From an uncultured virus (IMG/VR IMGVR_UViG_3300033074_001867) (Duplodnaviria; Heunggongvirae; Uroviricota; Caudoviricetes), in the IMG/VR virus record IMGVR_UViG_3300033074_001867: 20,000 nucleotides of DNA, one strand, 5' to 3'. Positions within the stretch are counted from its first letter, which is position 1, and the number at the start of each line of letters is the position of its first letter. Position numbers and translations under genes: made by a program. The notes beneath the pieces are model-generated. The model made no database searches. It was given only the letters and a program-made list of their open reading frames with translations, and had not been told where the DNA came from. Shown here one piece after another: positions 3,027 to 15,430 of the stretch.

Positions 3027-3878
3027 ATGGCAAAAAAAGCAATAGCATTATCAAAAGCAGTTCCATTAAATACCGTAAAAGCAGTATCAGTTAACAACGG
3101 TATGAGTGGATGGTACAATAATACCCTGAAACCATTGTTATCATCTAACTACGGTAAAGCTGATTTGGATTGGATGATTAAAAACAAACAAAATCCTACG
3201 GGATGGGATTTGAATACTTTTTATGACAATGGTTCTTTGCTCGGTAATTCTAAATTCCCGCAGTGTGTCCTCAATGCTTACAATGCAAAGATAAAAGTCG
3301 GTATTCCTTTTTCTGCTGACTCAGAGGTGAATCAGGCTATCAACTACAACAGAGCGCAAACCGATTCACGCAAACGTATTTCACACATTGTTTCTGAAAT
3401 TGAAGACTACGGAAACGGAAATGCCACCCCTGCTGAATTTAAAACGCTAATGGAGAATAACTACATCAAGGCAAAAGGTGCGGGGATTCGATTTGGTTGT
3501 TATAACGGCTGGACAAAACAGTGGGATATGGTAGTAAAAAATACCGACTTCTTATTACTTCATTGCTATATTCCGTCTGCTAATATGAGTAGCGGTAAAA
3601 AATTGTATGACTATCTATGTGGAAGTTCAAATACTGACCGATTACCAAAGATTGCTACAGCAGCAAAAGCATTGGGTAAAATTTATCCGGTATCAATTAT
3701 CTATTCATCAGAAGCGGCCTACGGACAGACATTCTTTAAAACAAACGCATGGACAAAAGCACATGAATTGTTTTTGGAATACTATGCAACAAAAGCTACT
3801 GCTAACATGAAGTCAAATATCATTATTGACGGATGTTATCAGTTCGTAACAAAAACAGGAAAAGTATCAAAACCATAA
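3027..3878 (+). CDS. Hypothetical protein, possible TIM-barrel glycoside hydrolase
   Basis: Alternating beta/alpha pattern with HIVSEIE, FGCYNGW, DFLLLHCY and IIYSSE motifs reminiscent of glycoside hydrolase barrels; family not identified. Confidence 0.45.
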   Translation: MAKKAIALSKAVPLNTVKAVSVNNGMSGWYNNTLKPLLSSNYGKADLDWMIKNKQNPTGWDLNTFYDNGSLLGNSKFPQCVLNAYNAKIKVGIPFSADSEVNQAINYNRAQTDSRKRISHIVSEIEDYGNGNATPAEFKTLMENNYIKAKGAGIRFGCYNGWTKQWDMVVKNTDFLLLHCYIPSANMSSGKKLYDYLCGSSNTDRLPKIATAAKALGKIYPVSIIYSSEAAYGQTFFKTNAWTKAHELFLEYYATKATANMKSNIIIDGCYQFVTKTGKVSKP

Positions 3879-5594: not shown

Positions 5595-5897
5595 ATGACA
5601 GCAACCAAAAAGAAGATCGCTACTATTCCTGCACATCGAATTGATGTAGTGAAGGAAAAAGGAACACGGGTAAAAAATGGCTTTAATTATCAGGAAGTCA
5701 TTGATGGTCCGAAAGGTCGTAATGTGATTCATAAAGGAGTCGGTTACGATGATTATACTCAGGCGTTACGTGCAGGGAAACGTGCCGCTGACCGACTGAT
5801 GGATGATCTGAAAGTATACTTTAATGGGGTTTTGAAATACACTCCAAAAAGTGTTGCTGAACGATTTGAAAAATACCTTTCAAAGAAGAAAAAATAA
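5595..5897 (+). CDS. Basic hypothetical protein, weak YegP/DUF1508-like motif
   Basis: FNYQEVIDGPKGRNVIHKGVGYDDYTQALRA resembles the YegP pattern. Confidence 0.5.
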   Translation: MTATKKKIATIPAHRIDVVKEKGTRVKNGFNYQEVIDGPKGRNVIHKGVGYDDYTQALRAGKRAADRLMDDLKVYFNGVLKYTPKSVAERFEKYLSKKKK

Positions 5898-5923
5898 TTA
5901 CCATGTTTTAAGGTTTATTACGG

Positions 5924-5958
5924 AAGCACTGTATCTTAGTTGACACAGTGCTTTTTTT
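5924..5958 (+). terminator. Rho-independent terminator
   Basis: Stem AAGCACTGT/ACAGTGCTT followed by a T run, directly after the + strand operon. Confidence 0.8.
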
Positions 5959-6017
5959 ATTTCATTAATATATTTATTGGGACAATAGATTCTCATAACT
6001 GTTGCGTCAATATAGAT

Positions 6018-6372
6018 GTTAGCGGTCAGGCTAAAACAACGAAGCAGCTAATTCGCAACCTGCATTATCATCGCTTACATCTAATCCCGCAAATGGTCTT
6101 TGGTAGTTAAGTCTGTGAACTTTTCTAACATCAGGTTGCTTAACATTTCGTGCTTCAATAAAAAGCGTTCCATTTTCATCTTTTACAAAATCACATTCAA
6201 CATAATCATTGGCATCATAAGCCTGCTGTAATGTTTCAAATTTTGTAGTGTCAAAGAAATCATCAAATGTTCCTCTGCTTTTTTGTTTCCCAAATAGGTA
6301 AATTTTTTCGTAACTCATTTTTCTTATTATTAAACTTTAGACTTCTAAAAGCGGAGAAGCCCGAACCGCTAA
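6018..6372 (-). mobile_element. IR-flanked single-gene cassette (attC-like ends)
   Basis: GTTAGCGGTCAGGCT (6018-6032) and AGCCCGAACCGCTAA (6358-6372) are imperfect inverted repeats bracketing the 95-aa ORF. Confidence 0.5.
6031..6318 (-). CDS. Hypothetical protein (cassette cargo)
   Basis: 95-aa ORF opposite to its neighbours, with A-rich leader; stop codon overlaps the left IR. Confidence 0.7.
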   Translation of the reverse strand: MSYEKIYLFGKQKSRGTFDDFFDTTKFETLQQAYDANDYVECDFVKDENGTLFIEARNVKQPDVRKVHRLNYQRPFAGLDVSDDNAGCELAASLF

Positions 6373-6479
6373 TGCTACTTTTTTTTCGATTTTAATAATT
6401 TCACTTTTGAGCATAAAATGGGCAATTATTACTATTGTTACTGTACTAAGTGTTACTGTTATCAAAGAAAACCAGAGAA

Positions 6480-6890
6480 GGAGTTTGTTGAGAGAAGAGC
6501 AAAGTTCTGTCTAAGAAATACGTTTCCGTACCTCTTAGAACAGCTCATTGCAAAAAGAAAACCATGTCGGTCGCCCGCTTCGCTTCGAGATCAGGTCTTA
6601 ATAATCTATCCTGACTGAGAAATTTTATCGCCGGATTATCGGCTATTGGCTTGGGTCATTTCTCTTTAGTTCTAACCCTGACGGTTGCCACGTCCCACAG
6701 TACCGTCTTTTTACTCAGGAACATGCTGCCAGCTTTCTGTAATCCAGACCACGTCCTGTTATGAACGGGAAATCCCAGCTAACCTTTCGGCGCCGGGACT
6801 TTTACAAATAACAAAAATCAGTTACCTGACTCTATTAATTTTCTTTGTTAAAAAAACCTGATACTCTGATTTTTATTATTGTAATTCCCG
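6480..6890 (-). ncRNA. Candidate large structured non-coding RNA / long leader
   Basis: At least six stems; G-U wobbles and two GAAA tetraloops read on the minus strand; consensus promoter immediately upstream; no credible ORF. Confidence 0.6.
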
Positions 6891-6895
6891 TGCCA

Positions 6896-6928
6896 CAAAG
6901 ATACACACATAGATTTATTCCATGCAAA
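6896..6928 (-). promoter_or_regulatory. Bacteroidota primary-sigma promoter
   Basis: Minus strand TTTG (6928-6925) - 21 nt - TATCTTTG (6903-6896), matching TTTG-N19-21-TAnnTTTG. Confidence 0.75.
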
Positions 6929-6947: not shown

Positions 6948-7535
6948 ATGGAAAACCGAATAAAGTGGGTAGTATGCGTAATTCTTGCAATAATCGCACT
7001 TTTTATTTTGAATAAATTTGCTGACAAAAAGGAAATTCCGGACCAAGTGACGGTAATTGTACAGGATTCAAGTAAATTCGAGGTGAGTAATCCTGCTCCC
7101 AAGATCACTATTCCGCCGGCCAATTATGATTTTGGATGGATAAACCAGATGCAGTCAATCGATTCCTTAAAAATGGCATTGATACAGGCTATTACGGACG
7201 CTAAGACGGTGCGTGAATACGACAGCACTCATATAGCCAAAAACACTTCCGGCGATACCCTGGCAATCGCTACACTGAAACAAACAGTAACAGACAACCG
7301 TTTGAGTAAATACTCTTTGAACATAAAGACTTTTAATAAAGAAACGACTATTCGGGAGCAGTTGAAGTGGGGGATTATGGGTGGCGTTCAGTTTCGAAAG
7401 GATTCTACTACTCACTTGGATCTGCAAGCCGATGTAATGCTGCCGAAAATGACTTTGAGTGGATTTAAAGAAATTGGGGGCAATGGCTTTGGAATGGGAA
7501 TAAAATTACCAATCATAAAAAACTATGGCAAGTAG
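6948..7535 (+). CDS. Spanin-like / lysis-associated membrane-anchored protein
   Basis: N-terminal TM anchor, extended middle region, C-terminal amphipathic beta strands (WGIMGGV...GFGMGIKL); overlaps the endolysin start. Confidence 0.5.
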   Translation: MENRIKWVVCVILAIIALFILNKFADKKEIPDQVTVIVQDSSKFEVSNPAPKITIPPANYDFGWINQMQSIDSLKMALIQAITDAKTVREYDSTHIAKNTSGDTLAIATLKQTVTDNRLSKYSLNIKTFNKETTIREQLKWGIMGGVQFRKDSTTHLDLQADVMLPKMTLSGFKEIGGNGFGMGIKLPIIKNYGK

Positions 7536-7953
7536 AAACATTGCAGACTGCGTACCTGAACTACAGGTAGCATGGACAGACTCTCAGGCGGAGTGGAAAC
7601 AACTATTCCCTGATCAACCACAACCATTTTTAACATGCACGCACCGGCCCGATGAAGAGCAGGAAATTCTCTACATGATGAATAAGAACGGCAAGGATGA
7701 TGATGGTGATGGAAAAATCGATGAAGGAGATGAATGGAGAAGTAATGCCAAGCCCGGACAGAGCAAGCATAATAAGTTTCCTGCCCAGGCTCTTGATATT
7801 GCTTTTAAGAATTCGAAAGGTAAACTGGATTGGTCAGAGAAGCTATTTGCCGGATTTGCTATTTTAATGAAGAAAAGAGGTATAAAGTGGGGTGGCGATT
7901 GGGTAAGTTTAAAAAAATCCAAAAAAAATGACACTCCTCACTTTGAGGTTTGA
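7525..7953 (+). CDS. Endolysin, peptidase M15 family (L-Ala-D-Glu peptidase-like)
   Basis: Motifs TCTHR..EEQ, SKH....AQALD, WGGDW and DTPHFE (Zn ligands H, D, H). Confidence 0.9.
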   Translation: MASRNIADCVPELQVAWTDSQAEWKQLFPDQPQPFLTCTHRPDEEQEILYMMNKNGKDDDGDGKIDEGDEWRSNAKPGQSKHNKFPAQALDIAFKNSKGKLDWSEKLFAGFAILMKKRGIKWGGDWVSLKKSKKNDTPHFEV

Positions 7954-8541
7954 TATTTAGTATATTTGGGAGTGAATAAACGACCAGAAAACAGCCACCT
8001 TTATAGAAGATGTAGAATTTGCAAGGAAACAAAACCTTTAAATAACATATTTTTTTATAATGAAAAAAGCAGACTGTATGGACTGTCTTATGTTTGCAGA
8101 CCATGTGAGAGTATAAGGGGAAAAGAAAAGGCACTGAAGTATCCAAGAAAGAATCGAGTATATAATTTCAGTCCAGAACAGATAGAAAGAAGGCGAAAGC
8201 ATGGTAGAAATTATAAGTTAAAGGCGCTTGGAATAATAAAGAAATATACGCTAATAGATCGTAAAAAAGGAGGTCGGCATGTTTGTGATTTAACAGAAGA
8301 TTTTTTAAATCAAAACATATTGCCTTGTGCCTGTGTATACTGTGGAGATAGATGGAAAATAGGGTGTGATAGAATAGATAATTCTAGGGGACATTCTATG
8401 GACAATGTAGTTCCTTGTTGCAAATTATGTAATGTAACCAGGATGCATAATTATACTCACGAAGAAATGAAGTTATTAGGAAAAGTAATTATGCGTATAA
8501 AAAAGAAGCGCAAGAAAGACACTCCTCATTTCGAAGTATAA
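7930..8541 (+). repeat. Direct repeat of the DTPHFEV* coding sequence (7930-7953 and 8518-8541)
   Basis: GACACTCCTCACTTTGAGGTTTGA vs GACACTCCTCATTTCGAAGTATAA: first 11 nt identical, then only synonymous changes. Confidence 0.9.
7966..8541 (+). CDS. HNH-like (homing) endonuclease
   Basis: N-terminal CRIC...CRPC Zn ribbon; C-terminal CVYCG...DRIDNSRGH..DNVVPCCKLCN nuclease motif; TTG (7966) or GTG (7972) start. Confidence 0.8.
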   Translation: MGVNKRPENSHLYRRCRICKETKPLNNIFFYNEKSRLYGLSYVCRPCESIRGKEKALKYPRKNRVYNFSPEQIERRRKHGRNYKLKALGIIKKYTLIDRKKGGRHVCDLTEDFLNQNILPCACVYCGDRWKIGCDRIDNSRGHSMDNVVPCCKLCNVTRMHNYTHEEMKLLGKVIMRIKKKRKKDTPHFEV

Positions 8542-10866: not shown

Positions 10867-11193
10867 GTGATAAAAATTGACATTAAACCATTATCAGTAA
10901 ATGATGCGTGGAAAGGAAGAAGATTTAAAACAAAGCAGTACGAGAAGTATGAGAGAGATGTTTTATTTCTTCTTCCTAAGATAAAATTACCGGATCCGCC
11001 TTTCCATGTGAATTACGAATTTGGTTTTAGTAGTGCAGGAAGTGACCTCGATAATCCTGTAAAATTATGCACAGACATTTTACAAAAGAAATATGAATTC
11101 AATGACTCTTCAATTCATTCGATGAACATTCGAAAGTTCAAAGTTGAGAAGGGTAAAGAGTATTTTAAGTTTGAATTTAAGACATTAGAGTAA
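10867..11193 (+). CDS. rusA: RusA-family Holliday junction resolvase
   Basis: PLSVN..W, SDLDN..K...DIL and NDSSI motifs. Confidence 0.8.
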   Translation: MIKIDIKPLSVNDAWKGRRFKTKQYEKYERDVLFLLPKIKLPDPPFHVNYEFGFSSAGSDLDNPVKLCTDILQKKYEFNDSSIHSMNIRKFKVEKGKEYFKFEFKTLE

Positions 11194-11326
11194 AGAGTAC
11201 CCGATTCTCCCCACATCTTACCGACTAAAAACTATGGCGTAGTTTAAATTTGTATTGTTAATAAATAGTACAAAAAACTGTAGTCGGCTGTTTTTATAGT
11301 AGAATTTATTGCCCCACATTGCACAC

Positions 11327-11453
11327 GCTGACTAACTTAAAATGAATCATTCAAAGACATAATAGAAACGCCTCGTTGCGTAGAAGATAATGGTCATTAC
11401 CGAAAGGTGGGTTATTCAGCACTTCTACAAAAACGGGGCGTTTCTGTTATTTT
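11327..11453 (+). ncRNA. Structured leader RNA / attenuator (C4/CI-like)
   Basis: 19-bp stem 11359-11377/11432-11450 with two G-U pairs, inner 7-bp stem, GAAA tetraloop, and an upstream complementary box. Confidence 0.55.
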
Positions 11454-11464
11454 AATCCGTAACC

Positions 11465-11749
11465 ATGGATGTTATTTGTAAAAAATGTGGTAGTGTAAAC
11501 GACTACCGGATCGAGAAAAGAGCCAAGAATAATTGTGCTTTTTGTAATGGATGCGATCAATTCATTAAAAACATTCCTTATAAAAGTCAGACAATTTTAT
11601 ATTTTGGAAAATATAAAGGAATGGACATACTCGAAATGACCGATATTTCTTACATGAAATGGTTGTATGAGAATGCTTCAAGTCTTAAAGAGCATCAAAA
11701 AAAAGCACTAAATGATCGTATGGATTTCTTAAAAAATGAAGGCCAATGA
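11465..11749 (+). CDS. Zn-ribbon plus FGKYKG-motif (DUF3820-like) protein
   Basis: CKKC...CNGC followed by FGKYKG..I......SYMKW. Confidence 0.7.
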   Translation: MDVICKKCGSVNDYRIEKRAKNNCAFCNGCDQFIKNIPYKSQTILYFGKYKGMDILEMTDISYMKWLYENASSLKEHQKKALNDRMDFLKNEGQ

Positions 11750-12315: not shown

Positions 12316-14168
12316 GTAGCATTACAATCTTTGCAAATATTTTTAGTAAAGATCCGCATTATATCACTGTTGATACAGCTCTTGATCGTATTAAGACTGG
12401 CATAAAAAGCAAAGAAAGGGTGCTGGAGATACGGTCGCAGATAGACAAAGAAAGAGCAAATGTACTGAAGCAAAATCTGCCAAGTATTTGTTTTTCAGGG
12501 AAATTCACCGGCGAAAGAAAAGACGCTACGATTATTACTCACAGTGGTTTTATTTGTCTTGATTTTGACAATATTGAGCAGTTGGAAAGTAAAAAAGAGG
12601 AACTATCTAAAAGCCCTTTTTGCTTTTCCGTATGGGTAAGTCCTTCCGGATCAGGATTAAAGATGCTTGTAAAAATAGCAGATGGGTCTAAGCATCGCCT
12701 TCATTTTGCATCGTTAAAAAAAGAGTTTCCAGAGATCGATAGGTCCGGCGTAAATGAATCAAGGGTGGCTTACGAAAGCTATGATCCTGAAATTTATGTT
12801 AATGAAAAAGCGGAAGTATATACAAAAATCCTTAAAACAGAATTTGTTGAGCAGCGGGAAAAGGTAGAAAATCAACAAGACGTTTTTGATAAAATCGTTG
12901 TTTGGCTGACTAATCGAGGAGACGCATTTGTTTCGGGGGAGAGAAACCAATTTATATTCAAATTGTCATCTGCTTGTTGTCGATTCGGAATACATGAACA
13001 GAATACGCTTGATTACTGCGCCATATCGTTTTTAACGCATGATAATACTTTTTCTGCCTCAGAGTGTCAAAAAGCTATTCAAAGTGCTTACAAGGCAAAT
13101 AGGCAGTTGTTTGGAAGTGCTGCTTTTGAAAGCGGGAAGTTGGTTGAAAAAACAACACGACACGAAATTTCATTGCCGGCAACTAATCCGGATATTTTTG
13201 ATCTTGAAATAAGGCCAAAGGATGTAATATTTGGGGAGGATGTAAAAGCAGCAGCGCTTAATATTTATGATAGTGGATACGAAAGCATTCAGAGTATGGG
13301 TATTTCGGAGTTAGATGAATATTTTAAGATGAAAAGGGGAGAGATCACCTTGCTTTCGGGAATAGGTAATTACGGAAAAAGTTCGTTATTGAAATTTCTT
13401 CTGTTGATGAAAGCAATCTTGTTTGATCAGAAATTCGCATTATTTTCTCCCGAAGACTGCCCTGCAAGTGAGTTCTATCATGATCTGGTAGAAATATATC
13501 TTGGGTGCGATTGTACTCCCAAAAATCCTAATCGACCATCAAGAGAAAAGTACGATGTTGCCTATGATTGGATAAGCAAACATATTTTTTATGTCTATCC
13601 AAAAACGATTGCTCCAACTCCGGAATACATAAAAGAACGATTTCTTGAGTTGATCATTAAGCAAAAGGTGGATGGTTGTGTAATAGATCCTTTTAATCAA
13701 CTCAGCAACGAGTATGGAGCAAGATCAGACAAGTACCTGGAAACATTTCTTTCCGATTGCAGTCGGTTTGCTCAAACGAACAACGTGTATTTTATTATTG
13801 TTGCGCATCCGACTAAGCTAAAAAAGATACAAGGCGAAGAAAATTATCCGTGTCCTGATATATTTGACATTGCCGATGGTGCCATGTGGAATAATAAAAT
13901 GGACAATATTTTAATTTATCATAGACCAGAACATCAGAGTGATCCCAATAGTTCGTTGTGCGAATTACATACTAAAAAAATCAGGCGGCAAAAAATGATC
14001 GGTAAAAAAGGAGTTCTTGAATTTCAGTTAAACAGAACAATAAGGCGTTTTGTGTTTTCCGGAAAAGATGTGATGGGATCGGCATTAAAGGGAGAAAAAG
14101 AAACTAAGCAATTAAACATTACGGATTACAGAAACTTCCATGAGCCAAACAAAGACTTCGAGTTTTAA
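12309..14168 (+). CDS. Primase-helicase fusion (BT4734/VirE-N-like primase, PriCT-like domain, SF4 DnaB/Twinkle-like helicase)
   Basis: HSGFICLDFD, VSPSGSGLK, GERN..IF, Walker A GIGNYGKS, IDPFNQL and VAHPTK motifs. Confidence 0.85.
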   Translation: MVGSITIFANIFSKDPHYITVDTALDRIKTGIKSKERVLEIRSQIDKERANVLKQNLPSICFSGKFTGERKDATIITHSGFICLDFDNIEQLESKKEELSKSPFCFSVWVSPSGSGLKMLVKIADGSKHRLHFASLKKEFPEIDRSGVNESRVAYESYDPEIYVNEKAEVYTKILKTEFVEQREKVENQQDVFDKIVVWLTNRGDAFVSGERNQFIFKLSSACCRFGIHEQNTLDYCAISFLTHDNTFSASECQKAIQSAYKANRQLFGSAAFESGKLVEKTTRHEISLPATNPDIFDLEIRPKDVIFGEDVKAAALNIYDSGYESIQSMGISELDEYFKMKRGEITLLSGIGNYGKSSLLKFLLLMKAILFDQKFALFSPEDCPASEFYHDLVEIYLGCDCTPKNPNRPSREKYDVAYDWISKHIFYVYPKTIAPTPEYIKERFLELIIKQKVDGCVIDPFNQLSNEYGARSDKYLETFLSDCSRFAQTNNVYFIIVAHPTKLKKIQGEENYPCPDIFDIADGAMWNNKMDNILIYHRPEHQSDPNSSLCELHTKKIRRQKMIGKKGVLEFQLNRTIRRFVFSGKDVMGSALKGEKETKQLNITDYRNFHEPNKDFEF

Positions 14169-14376
14169 TTTAACTTACAGGGATAAGATATTTTGTATGT
14201 TTCTGAGTTTAGAAGTGGATCAGGAATTTGAAATATATAAAAAAGTTCATCCCGAAAACATTAAACAATTCATTGAAGAGTGTAAGCAATTAATCAAAGA
14301 GGATTTAATGCTTTCGCATTATATGCTCTTTGATGACCATTACACTAAAATTAAAAAGAAACTAAAAGTATTTTAA
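14140..14376 (+). CDS. Hypothetical protein
   Basis: 78-aa ORF packed within the operon. Confidence 0.6.
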   Translation: MSQTKTSSFNLTYRDKIFCMFLSLEVDQEFEIYKKVHPENIKQFIEECKQLIKEDLMLSHYMLFDDHYTKIKKKLKVF

Positions 14377-14379
14377 GAT

Positions 14380-14664
14380 ATGAGCACATTAACCATCAAA
14401 GGCAAGATCAACAAAATATTTCCTGTAGAGGGAGACAAAGATAAATTCCAGAAGCAGGTCTTCTGGCTGGACTACGAGGAGAATGGATTTTCTCAGGTCG
14501 TAGCATTTGAATGCTGGAAAAACAAATTGCATTTGATACAGAACTGTGTTCCGGGTGAAACTGTAGAAGTCAGTTTTAACGTAATGGGAAGAGTGCATGA
14601 AGGCAAGTGTTATAATTCACTCAGGGTTTGGAAGATTGTTGCTGAAGCTAATGGAAATGGATAA
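14380..14664 (+). CDS. DUF3127-like OB-fold protein (putative SSB)
   Basis: I.GKI.KI...F.KQ.F...Q.V.FE....K...G..V.VSFN..GR...GK.YNSL..WKI pattern. Confidence 0.8.
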   Translation: MSTLTIKGKINKIFPVEGDKDKFQKQVFWLDYEENGFSQVVAFECWKNKLHLIQNCVPGETVEVSFNVMGRVHEGKCYNSLRVWKIVAEANGNG

Positions 14665-15430
14665 ATTTACTCACGGATCGCTCTTCAGCGGCATTGGAGG
14701 TTTTGATTATGCAGCTCAATTAATGGGATGGAATAATGTTTTTCATTGCGAATGGATTGAAAGCAAAAGAAAGTTTTTAGAAAATAAATTTAAAGGGTCA
14801 ATTAGTTATGGCGACATCAGTAAAACAGACTTCACTATTCACAGAGGAACAATCGATGTGCTTTCCGGTGGATTCCCTTGCCAGGATGCAAGTATTGCAA
14901 AGCAAGATGGAAAAGGACAACAAGGGCTTAATGGAAGCAGGACAGGATTGTTTACAGAATTCTGCAGATCCATTGAAGAAATCAAACCAAAATTTGTTGT
15001 CGCCGAAAATGTCGCTAACATTCTTAGAACTAATGGAGGGGCAGACTTTAGCGCAATTCTCACCGAACTATCCAGATTGGGGTATAATGCAGAATGGCGA
15101 GTTTGTTATGCGTCAGAAGTCGGTGCGCCGCATCAAAGAGCCAGGTTGTATATCGTTGCTTACTCCTGCAGCATCAGATTACAAGAGGGAGCGTCTTTCT
15201 TTTCCTTTCTTCACCAGAAGACATCACCGTTCACCTGGATCGCTGCCGGAACATCTGTACAGATTATTCGGGGCGGTGCCTGGCAGACTGAACCCCCAAC
15301 TTTATGCTTACCTGATGGGATATCCGGTCGATTGGTTAGAGAACAATTACACGGATATGGAAACGCAGTAGTACCACAAATACCATTAGCAATATTTAAA
15401 GCAATACAAGAAACAGATAATGAAACCTAA
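14657..15430 (+). CDS. DNA cytosine-5 methyltransferase, large (alpha) subunit
   Basis: Motif I FSGIGG, IV GFPCQD, VI ENV, VIII QRARLY, X YGNAVV; no motif IX in frame; start at 14651 or 14657. Confidence 0.9.
   Translation: MDKFTHGSLFSGIGGFDYAAQLMGWNNVFHCEWIESKRKFLENKFKGSISYGDISKTDFTIHRGTIDVLSGGFPCQDASIAKQDGKGQQGLNGSRTGLFTEFCRSIEEIKPKFVVAENVANILRTNGGADFSAILTELSRLGYNAEWRVCYASEVGAPHQRARLYIVAYSCSIRLQEGASFFSFLHQKTSPFTWIAAGTSVQIIRGGAWQTEPPTLCLPDGISGRLVREQLHGYGNAVVPQIPLAIFKAIQETDNET
14808..15371 (+). CDS. Nested alternate-frame ORF, putative methyltransferase beta subunit
   Basis: 187 open codons inside the MTase gene; contains LLTPAASD and the motif IX-like RLNPQLYAYLMGYPVDW. Confidence 0.75.
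   Translation: MATSVKQTSLFTEEQSMCFPVDSLARMQVLQSKMEKDNKGLMEAGQDCLQNSADPLKKSNQNLLSPKMSLTFLELMEGQTLAQFSPNYPDWGIMQNGEFVMRQKSVRRIKEPGCISLLTPAASDYKRERLSFPFFTRRHHRSPGSLPEHLYRLFGAVPGRLNPQLYAYLMGYPVDWLENNYTDMETQ

Follow-up and report, generated by a model that had tools for sequence, protein, structure and literature searches.

A conserved three-way junction RNA, possibly a two-state leader, at the head of an exchangeable accessory slot in a Bacteroidota-type phage

A minus-strand slot opposes the lysis genes

We analysed a 20,000-nt stretch of DNA from an uncultured tailed virus (Caudoviricetes; IMG/VR record IMGVR_UViG_3300033074_001867), referred to here as the window. Its gene content is that of a Bacteroidota-type tailed phage and includes an M15 endolysin, an endonuclease VII/HNH protein, an SMC-like ATPase, a DUF6291 initiator-like gene and a BT4734-type primase-helicase; the nearest cultured matches were Flavobacterium phages, with 26-37% identity. 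A slot of approximately 1 kb that reads on the minus strand lies between the plus-strand genes 5595-5897 and 6948-7535. The second of these genes, upstream of the M15 endolysin (7525-7953), encodes a 195-aa protein with an N-terminal hydrophobic stretch and served as the anchor for finding relatives. At the far boundary of the slot, 3' of gene 5595-5897, is a plus-strand hairpin followed by a T run (5924-5960; arms 5924-5935/5942-5953), and a similar hairpin marks the far end of the slot in L127, one of two relatives described below. The 3' region of the gene (5898-5960, plus strand) carries the word TTTAAGGTT and then this terminator; the L127 counterpart (231-303) gave a weak Rfam match to the Bacteroidetes FopS small RNAs (22.6 bits; cut-off, 56). 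The flanking proteins had no relatives in the viral collection, which thus covers this phage group poorly. Among the 16 window proteins that we scanned, none was recognisable as a recombinase.

Within this slot, a first-pass annotation had described an ORF-free stretch that folds on the minus strand into a large RNA of approximately 400 nt. All of the stems that it listed do pair, with G-U pairs and no mismatch on the minus strand. Folding of positions 6900-6480 was equalled by none of 100 shuffles on the minus strand (z = -5.31), compared with 6 of 100 on the plus strand (z = -1.71). Hairpins of at least 3 bp with GNRA loops numbered five on the minus strand, where 1.0 was expected (p = 0.003, 3,000 shuffles), and none on the plus strand, in keeping with the claimed strand specificity. 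The stretch is also ORF-free in the stronger sense that we found no coding signal in any of the six frames (codon scores of -0.11 to 0.09, versus 0.21-0.40 in four neighbouring genes). A read-through or decayed minus-strand gene was rejected on codon usage and Pfam, and no protein remnant was found. The repeat of GGACGUGG at 6756-6749 and 6695-6688 is real, but an 8-mer repeat occurred in 71% of 2,000 shuffles, and we rejected it as a signal.

A three-way junction is conserved behind a Bacteroidota promoter

Collecting homologues and looking for covariation, a check that had been proposed with the first-pass annotation, yielded two relatives. The 195-aa flanking protein had 10 homologues, and their alignment retrieved two metagenome contigs, L126 and L127, whose identity to the window is 97% from 6896 on and 82% from 6882, respectively. 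The pattern of a Bacteroidota primary-sigma promoter is present in the window as annotated (6896-6928, minus strand), with TTTG at 6928-6925 and a TAnnTTTG box at 6903-6896. On its own this pattern is at chance level (1.32 expected in the window; seen in 152 of 200 shuffles), but both boxes are present in L126 and L127, with the L126 identity stopping exactly at 6896, the last base of the TAnnTTTG box, and it is this conservation that supports the promoter call. According to PMC9723704, the TAnnTTTG box lies at -12 to -5 relative to +1; the Bacteroidota consensus is also given in PMC7366714. Transcription is accordingly predicted to start at 6891. Computed from the box spacing, the predicted +1 is the first paired base of the helix P1 in all three variants, despite P1 lengths of 7, 7 and 5 bp.

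The unit that is conserved behind this promoter is a 127-nt three-way junction (6891-6765, minus strand). It consists of P1 (6891-6885/6771-6765), a long, AU-rich P2 (6884-6866/6821-6802) and P3 (6799-6789/6784-6772), which carries a GAAA loop. P1 is the closing helix that joins the first two annotated stems into a three-way junction, and it had been overlooked in the first reading. The junction folds far better than shuffles (z = -6.0 to -6.4, with z = -6.4 for 6891-6764). A covariance model built from window positions 6893-6762 alone had as its best non-self matches L127 (E = 7e-5) and L126 (E = 1e-4), each at the corresponding place, with E values that are rough. In a sequence-only alignment of the three full variants, RNAalifold returned the same three-way junction, with changes on both sides in 8 of 26 pairs; this covariation comes from three full variants, too few for a formal statistic, and a count of 22 of 37 pairs from a structure-fitted alignment was not relied on. 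The junction keeps its shape while its letters change, beside a flanking gene that is 82-97% identical. These comparisons, together with the covariation, support an undescribed structured phage RNA over the first 127-150 nt behind the promoter. We regard the junction, judged from sequence, as a real, uncatalogued leader RNA whose shape is kept across related phages.

The RNA matched no catalogued class. No Rfam 15 family came near its cut-off for the window, L126 or L127 (best, 10-26 bits), and there was no homology to the catalogued P4 CI, P1 c4 or IsrK RNAs. ARAGORN found no tRNA or tmRNA gene. A group I or II intron was rejected, as the stretch is intergenic, has its own promoter and has no Rfam intron match; the core motifs did not close by manual mapping either. 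That the phage captured an RNase P RNA, which then decayed or diverged strongly, is scarcely credible. It would account for a weak Rfam match (9.8 bits; cut-off, 100), a similar length and two trimmed signature words in the right order (6802 and 6510), as seen in 1 of 20,000 shuffles, but the words were trimmed after the fact and the first lies in P3, which is accounted for by the phage homologues. Moreover, the full CR-I and CR-V motifs, present in 27 of 30 and 30 of 30 host RNAs, are absent here, P4 around the bulged U forms 5 of 8 pairs versus 8 of 8 in all 30 hosts, and a profile of 30 host RNAs gives the window no score, whereas 227 of 500 shuffles score. The initial impression that this is not a tRNA, tmRNA, RNase P RNA or intron thus holds.

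Wider searches returned no further homologue. BLAST against cultured phages and plasmids gave no true homologue of the RNA, and RNA BLAST in sets of 4 and 401 genomes gave nothing true and 25 short chance matches. One viral pattern scan returned at least 121 loci, none similar, and others returned 0, 4 and 25 matches, those inspected being chance; likewise, the inspected ones among 20 matches in a genome pattern scan were chance, and a Bacteroidota pattern search hit 11 of 400 genomes, like its reversed control. The covariance model found nothing in 150 genomes, and the flanking region found neither a match nor a related prophage in 301. These searches are samples without a positive control and are not proof of absence. 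Titles and the opening parts of abstracts held no description of this RNA. Six short words from it were absent from three of the six supplementary files of a large screen for phage RNAs (PMC10690425); a listing elsewhere in that screen is possible.

Close relatives differ in what follows the junction

Behind the TAnnTTTG box, L126 and L127 each have a sequence that differs from the window and folds at z = -5.4 and -6.5. In the window, the junction is followed by 270 folded nt, 117 AT-rich nt and a gene for a 95-aa protein. In L127, a 247-aa gene with a GUG start begins 15 nt past P1 and is followed by two small genes. The L126 contig ends 120 nt past P1, and its sequence after the junction is unlike the window. 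Among the matches listed, contigs of four runs included partial variants whose agreement with the window stops at 6882 and 6925. The idea of a single conserved RNA of approximately 400 nt is therefore not supported, as both readable relatives have unrelated sequence after the same promoter and junction, and L127 has a gene there directly; what is supported of the proposed large phage RNA is its first 127-150 nt.

The L127 gene (951-1694, minus strand) lies in the accessory slot behind the junction and belongs to a small family of 223-260-aa two-winged-helix proteins, most of which have no Pfam match. The 247-aa protein had seven matches at E = 0.001, one of them spurious-looking. Its predicted structure has a two-winged-helix fold (pLDDT 81), and the protein is similar to HTH and initiator proteins of viruses, including a 'replication initiator' (E = 3e-5), and one of the seven family members matches a PHROG initiator family. 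No match was found in plasmids, cultured phages or solved structures at E = 0.001, nor by a profile search of 401 genomes. For the structured origin or primer RNA that had been suggested for this locus, this initiator-like gene is an indirect hint only. The corresponding reading would make the slot a second replicon, with a leader-controlled initiator gene in L127 and a ColE1-type RNA primer or single-strand origin in the window. The modelled fold and the initiator resemblance of the L127 protein speak for it, but the window already has a replication module, the protein lacks plasmid relatives, no consensus-type promoter (TAnnTTTG) occurs on the plus strand over 5900-6900, where a counter-transcript would start, and the strand asymmetry fits RNA folding rather than DNA. 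We consider a second replicon very unlikely.

A predicted competing hairpin lies at the start codon

A second possible partner for the 3' strand of P1 lies 5-7 nt downstream in each of the three variants. In the window, this strand can form a competing (anti-P1) hairpin (6749-6769, minus strand) with the first GGACGUGG, which contains GUG. The predicted probability of P1 was 0.81-0.96 in the three variants when the transcript ended just past P1, and with the next arm added it was 0.08 in L127 and 0.01 in L126. In the window it was 0.63-0.73 at 145-200 nt and 0.15-0.26 at 280-400 nt. The competing arm of the window was stronger than 194 of 200 random 30-mers; random window 30-mers equalled or beat the arms of the three variants in 6, 2 and 1 of 200 cases, and shuffled native 30-mers equalled them in 5, 7 and 4 of 200, in tests designed after the pattern had been seen.

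The start codon has the same position relative to the junction in all three variants. The competing arm contains it in the window (GUG 6752) and in L126 (AUG), and in L127 the arm falls 3 nt short of it. GUG 6752 opens a predicted 13-codon mini frame in the window (6711-6752, minus strand) that could encode a leader peptide. An equally long frame, starting with AUG, follows P1 at the same distance in L126, and the L127 frame is the 247-codon GUG frame.

We propose, with a probability of roughly one half, that the conserved part acts in cis as a leader that switches between two states at the head of an interchangeable accessory transcript. The stretch would then form the 5' portion of an accessory transcription unit that runs against the lysis genes and exchanges its contents between related phages. 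We favour this reading because the promoter and junction are kept, with different letters and different downstream sequence, in both readable relatives; because +1 coincides with the first P1 base and the start codon keeps its place in three of three variants; because P1 probability falls as the competing arm appears and that arm is rarely equalled by random 30-mers; and because the folding advantage of the minus strand is much larger with RNA than with DNA parameters and cassette boundaries are seen in independent runs (both below). During transcription, the three-way junction would close first, pairing the first nucleotide and probably shielding the 5' end, and with P1 closed the start codon, 12-15 nt downstream, would be accessible. 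As the next 20 nt emerge, the P1 3' strand could swap to the hairpin that covers or abuts the start codon, and the 5' end would be freed. Translation would then be confined to a brief period, or would depend on a protein, an antisense RNA or P2 cleavage to shift the balance in vivo; from the general properties of RNase III, the long P2 could be a site for this enzyme. In its simplest form, the leader would be a kinetic or factor-controlled gate, the competing hairpin being the state with a hidden start and an open 5' end. The gated codon would directly open the winged-helix gene in L127 and a 13-codon leader frame in the window and L126. In the window, the leader would run on through 270 nt of lineage-specific folded RNA and the AT-rich spacer to the docked 95-aa cassette, which the promoter would express.

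Several observations count against the two-state leader. The local switch is weak in the window (P1 probability of 0.6-0.7 at 145-200 nt), the context of GUG 6752 is not A-rich, the 13-codon peptides of the window and L126 are unrelated, and 430 nt separate the leader frame from the start of the cassette. The reading accounts for little of the 270-nt part, including the hairpin cluster and GNRA loops there, and it draws on only three full variants. The sole recorded RNA library among the four runs (X18) has no contig over 6259-6918; all four runs consist of contigs, and gaps in their cover prove nothing.

Two alternatives concern the junction itself. It could be a mere 5' stabiliser of an accessory mRNA, with the rest being functionless debris of cargo exchanges. 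Pairing of +1 in all three variants and the weak folding of 6763-6680 (z = -1.0) would suit such a role, but all three variants retain the competing arm despite changed letters, and the slot holds no recognisable protein remnant, which makes this highly improbable. Release of the junction as an sRNA of approximately 127 nt is unlikely, if less so. Like P4 CI or Gifsy-1 IsrK, such an sRNA would act in trans, its target being the long transcript that it comes from or a related phage entering the cell, with the fast-changing P2 loop setting immunity specificity. Changed letters in a constant shape next to a flanking gene that is 82-97% identical are what this predicts, and a further variant, in a contig of run X16, diverges at the base of P2. 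The P2 loop (6862-6853) can pair with 6599-6590 over 10 bp, a single pairing without covariation, and the leader with its small upstream frame recalls IsrK as outlined in PMC4825925. However, a consensus scan found no terminator after P1 or in the leader, no perfect complement elsewhere in the window exceeds 14 nt, the longest being AT-rich and located at the start of ORF 11465 (no null computed), and no related prophage, which would have spoken for a temperate lifestyle, turned up in the 301 genomes.

A lineage-specific extension leads to a swappable cassette

The two-state leader accounts for the first part of the stretch, and folding strength is uneven beyond it. Positions 6763-6490 gave z = -2.65 on the minus strand and -0.18 on the plus strand; of 72 background windows, 5 attained the minus-strand value, one of them overlapping this RNA. 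Positions 6763-6546 alone did no better than shuffles (z = -1.0). Against shuffled controls, a comparison that had been suggested with the annotation, the whole stretch thus folds strongly and its extension only moderately. In 6763-6490, the minus strand gained 20.6 kcal/mol over the plus strand with RNA parameters and 3.6 with those for DNA, which is the pattern expected where G-U pairs contribute. GC content in the 270-nt part is 45%, versus 38% for the window, and its GNRA excess, taken alone, is not significant (2 versus 0.7 expected, p = 0.16).

Three small hairpins (6678-6653, 6643-6630 and 6614-6591) form a minus-strand cluster at 6590-6680 (z = -2.9, with limits chosen post hoc). Possible pseudoknots are predicted within it, between 6664-6658 and 6623-6617 and between the loops 6639-6634 and 6606-6601, the 6-nt loop-loop complement being found in 2% of 300 shuffles. 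Further along the minus strand, the fold has a 3-bp hairpin with a GCGA (GNRA) loop at 6568-6577 and a strong 3' hairpin with a GAAA loop at 6506-6545 (z = -3.2 to -4.3), which is not a terminator by consensus scan and may mark the 3' end of a processed RNA. The letters of the extension recur in run X13 (6337-6692, one difference) and run X16 (6488-6624, none), so it is not an assembly error. No search gave a diverged homologue of the 270-nt part (6763-6490), and nhmmer with 6763-6373 had no match over 208 loci.

The slot cargo in this phage might instead be a stand-alone ncRNA of approximately 385 nt (6891 to about 6500), the junction being a protective 5' cap common to all cargoes. The pseudoknot cluster and GNRA hairpins would then build a compact structure that has either a protein partner, from the host or the phage, or catalytic activity. 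We hold this as a tentative alternative. It would explain the non-coding, GC-richer 270 nt with their minus-strand folding, cluster, loop-loop complement (p = 0.02) and strong 3' hairpin, and the recurrence of the same letters in two other runs. It is countered by the lack of a diverged homologue in any search, the shuffle-level folding of 6763-6546 and insignificant GNRA excess, the missing terminator and the absence of the RNA from both readable relatives. More speculative still is a combined version, in which a constant 'socket' of promoter and switch takes either protein genes or a large RNA. The pseudoknot-rich RNA of approximately 385 nt would here be a decoy, scaffold or ribozyme, possibly serving the cassette-capture site, and the P2 loop would encode phage identity.

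An AT-rich spacer (6373-6489, minus strand; 28% GC) leads from the extension to a docking point at 6373/6372, where a contig of run X16 that agrees with the window over 6372-6440 continues with other letters. Beyond it is a swappable cassette (6019-6372, minus strand) with the 95-aa ORF (6318-6031) and 8-bp inverted repeats at 6372-6365 and 6026-6019. Contigs from independent runs part from the window at both cassette ends, 6372 and 6018-6022. The 95-aa ORF has 71 homologues, and the gene is present without this RNA in all four viral loci examined; we therefore rejected it as a partner of the RNA. By these comparisons the gene is an independent, exchangeable cassette. An atlas search with it gave no usable match. 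At another viral locus (L122, 2200-3000), the 95-aa gene is one cassette in an array of small genes with TAAC...GTTA hairpin spacers. Across the spacer, a three-base periodic AT-rich stretch holds hydrophobic 35-42-aa frames from TTG on either strand (6337-6510, minus; 6341-6514, plus); the minus-strand frame crosses the cassette junction, and the stretch is possibly the remnant of a small membrane-protein gene.

Relation to known regulatory RNAs

Integrons place a promoter and an attI site before their cassettes. The present slot is similar in having a fixed promoter and leader before a docking point with an exchangeable single-gene cassette; unlike an integron, it has no recognised recombinase (among the 16 window proteins) and has a 520-nt structured leader before the docking point, and L127 lacks such cassette ends. 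The GOLLD, ROOL and OLE RNAs are large phage or bacterial ncRNAs of several hundred bases with GNRA loops. Our RNA shares their length, GNRA loops, possible loop-loop contacts and phage location, but it has no Rfam match, its full length is not conserved in relatives and its folding signal is far weaker. Stabilising stem-loops occur at the 5' ends of mRNAs, and the pairing of the first nucleotide in all three variants resembles them; a plain stabiliser would, however, need neither three helices nor a conserved competing hairpin. In the leaders of plasmid initiator genes, such as the repY-repZ pseudoknot of IncI/IncB and CopA-tap of R1, alternative folds gate a start codon and a leader peptide is involved. 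The predicted folds over the start codon, the possible leader peptide and the initiator-like L127 gene are comparable. The differences are that no counter-promoter was found, that the junction is closed on +1 and that no initiator gene follows it in the window, the winged-helix gene of L127 itself having no plasmid match.

The Gifsy-1 IsrK and P4 SeqA-CI leaders combine a phage promoter with a structured 5' RNA that has two folds, one of which hides a small upstream frame (PMC4825925). Our locus has the same predicted elements, namely alternative folds over an upstream start codon behind a phage promoter, a small frame and downstream accessory genes. It differs in showing no sequence or Rfam similarity, in having no terminator after the leader and in its Bacteroidota promoter, its downstream genes differ between close relatives, and a short form acting in trans is only hypothetical here. 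By analogy, the leader would work like the IsrK/P4 type and the plasmid rep leaders, and it is a member of neither group, as no homology, terminator or consensus-type counter-promoter was found.

Bacteroidota start translation without a Shine-Dalgarno sequence (PMC9723704), and because of this RNA gating of translation is little described in their phages. The present leader, in which the first base, three helices and a competing hairpin are kept through changed letters, is compact and would be well suited to reporter assays and structure probing. The leader also marks the position of an exchangeable accessory slot, which would link one fixed regulator to gene cassettes. If functional, the 270-nt extension would add to the known phage ncRNAs a rare class that evolves more quickly than the genes beside it and would escape screens based on conservation.

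Other features of the window

The endonuclease VII/HNH gene (7966-8541, plus strand) shares its last seven residues with the preceding endolysin (7525-7953), and the DNA matches too. This duplicated gene end (7525-8541) looks as if a mobile nuclease had inserted into the 3' end of the endolysin gene; L127 has a different endolysin and no endonuclease VII/HNH gene at that place. A long structured plus-strand leader (11190-11465; z = -4.2, with a 19-bp stem) precedes the replication operon, behind a TAnnTTTG match, and may be of the kissing-loop type. Two further long plus-strand hairpins lie at 2845-2925, a very stable one in the gap between ORFs 2611-2835 and 3027-3878 (z = -5.7), and at 14279-14337, within ORF 14140-14376 (z = -4.1). 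Finally, two long frames overlap on the plus strand at 14597-15430 (277 aa, methyltransferase-like by eye) and 14808-15371 (187 aa).
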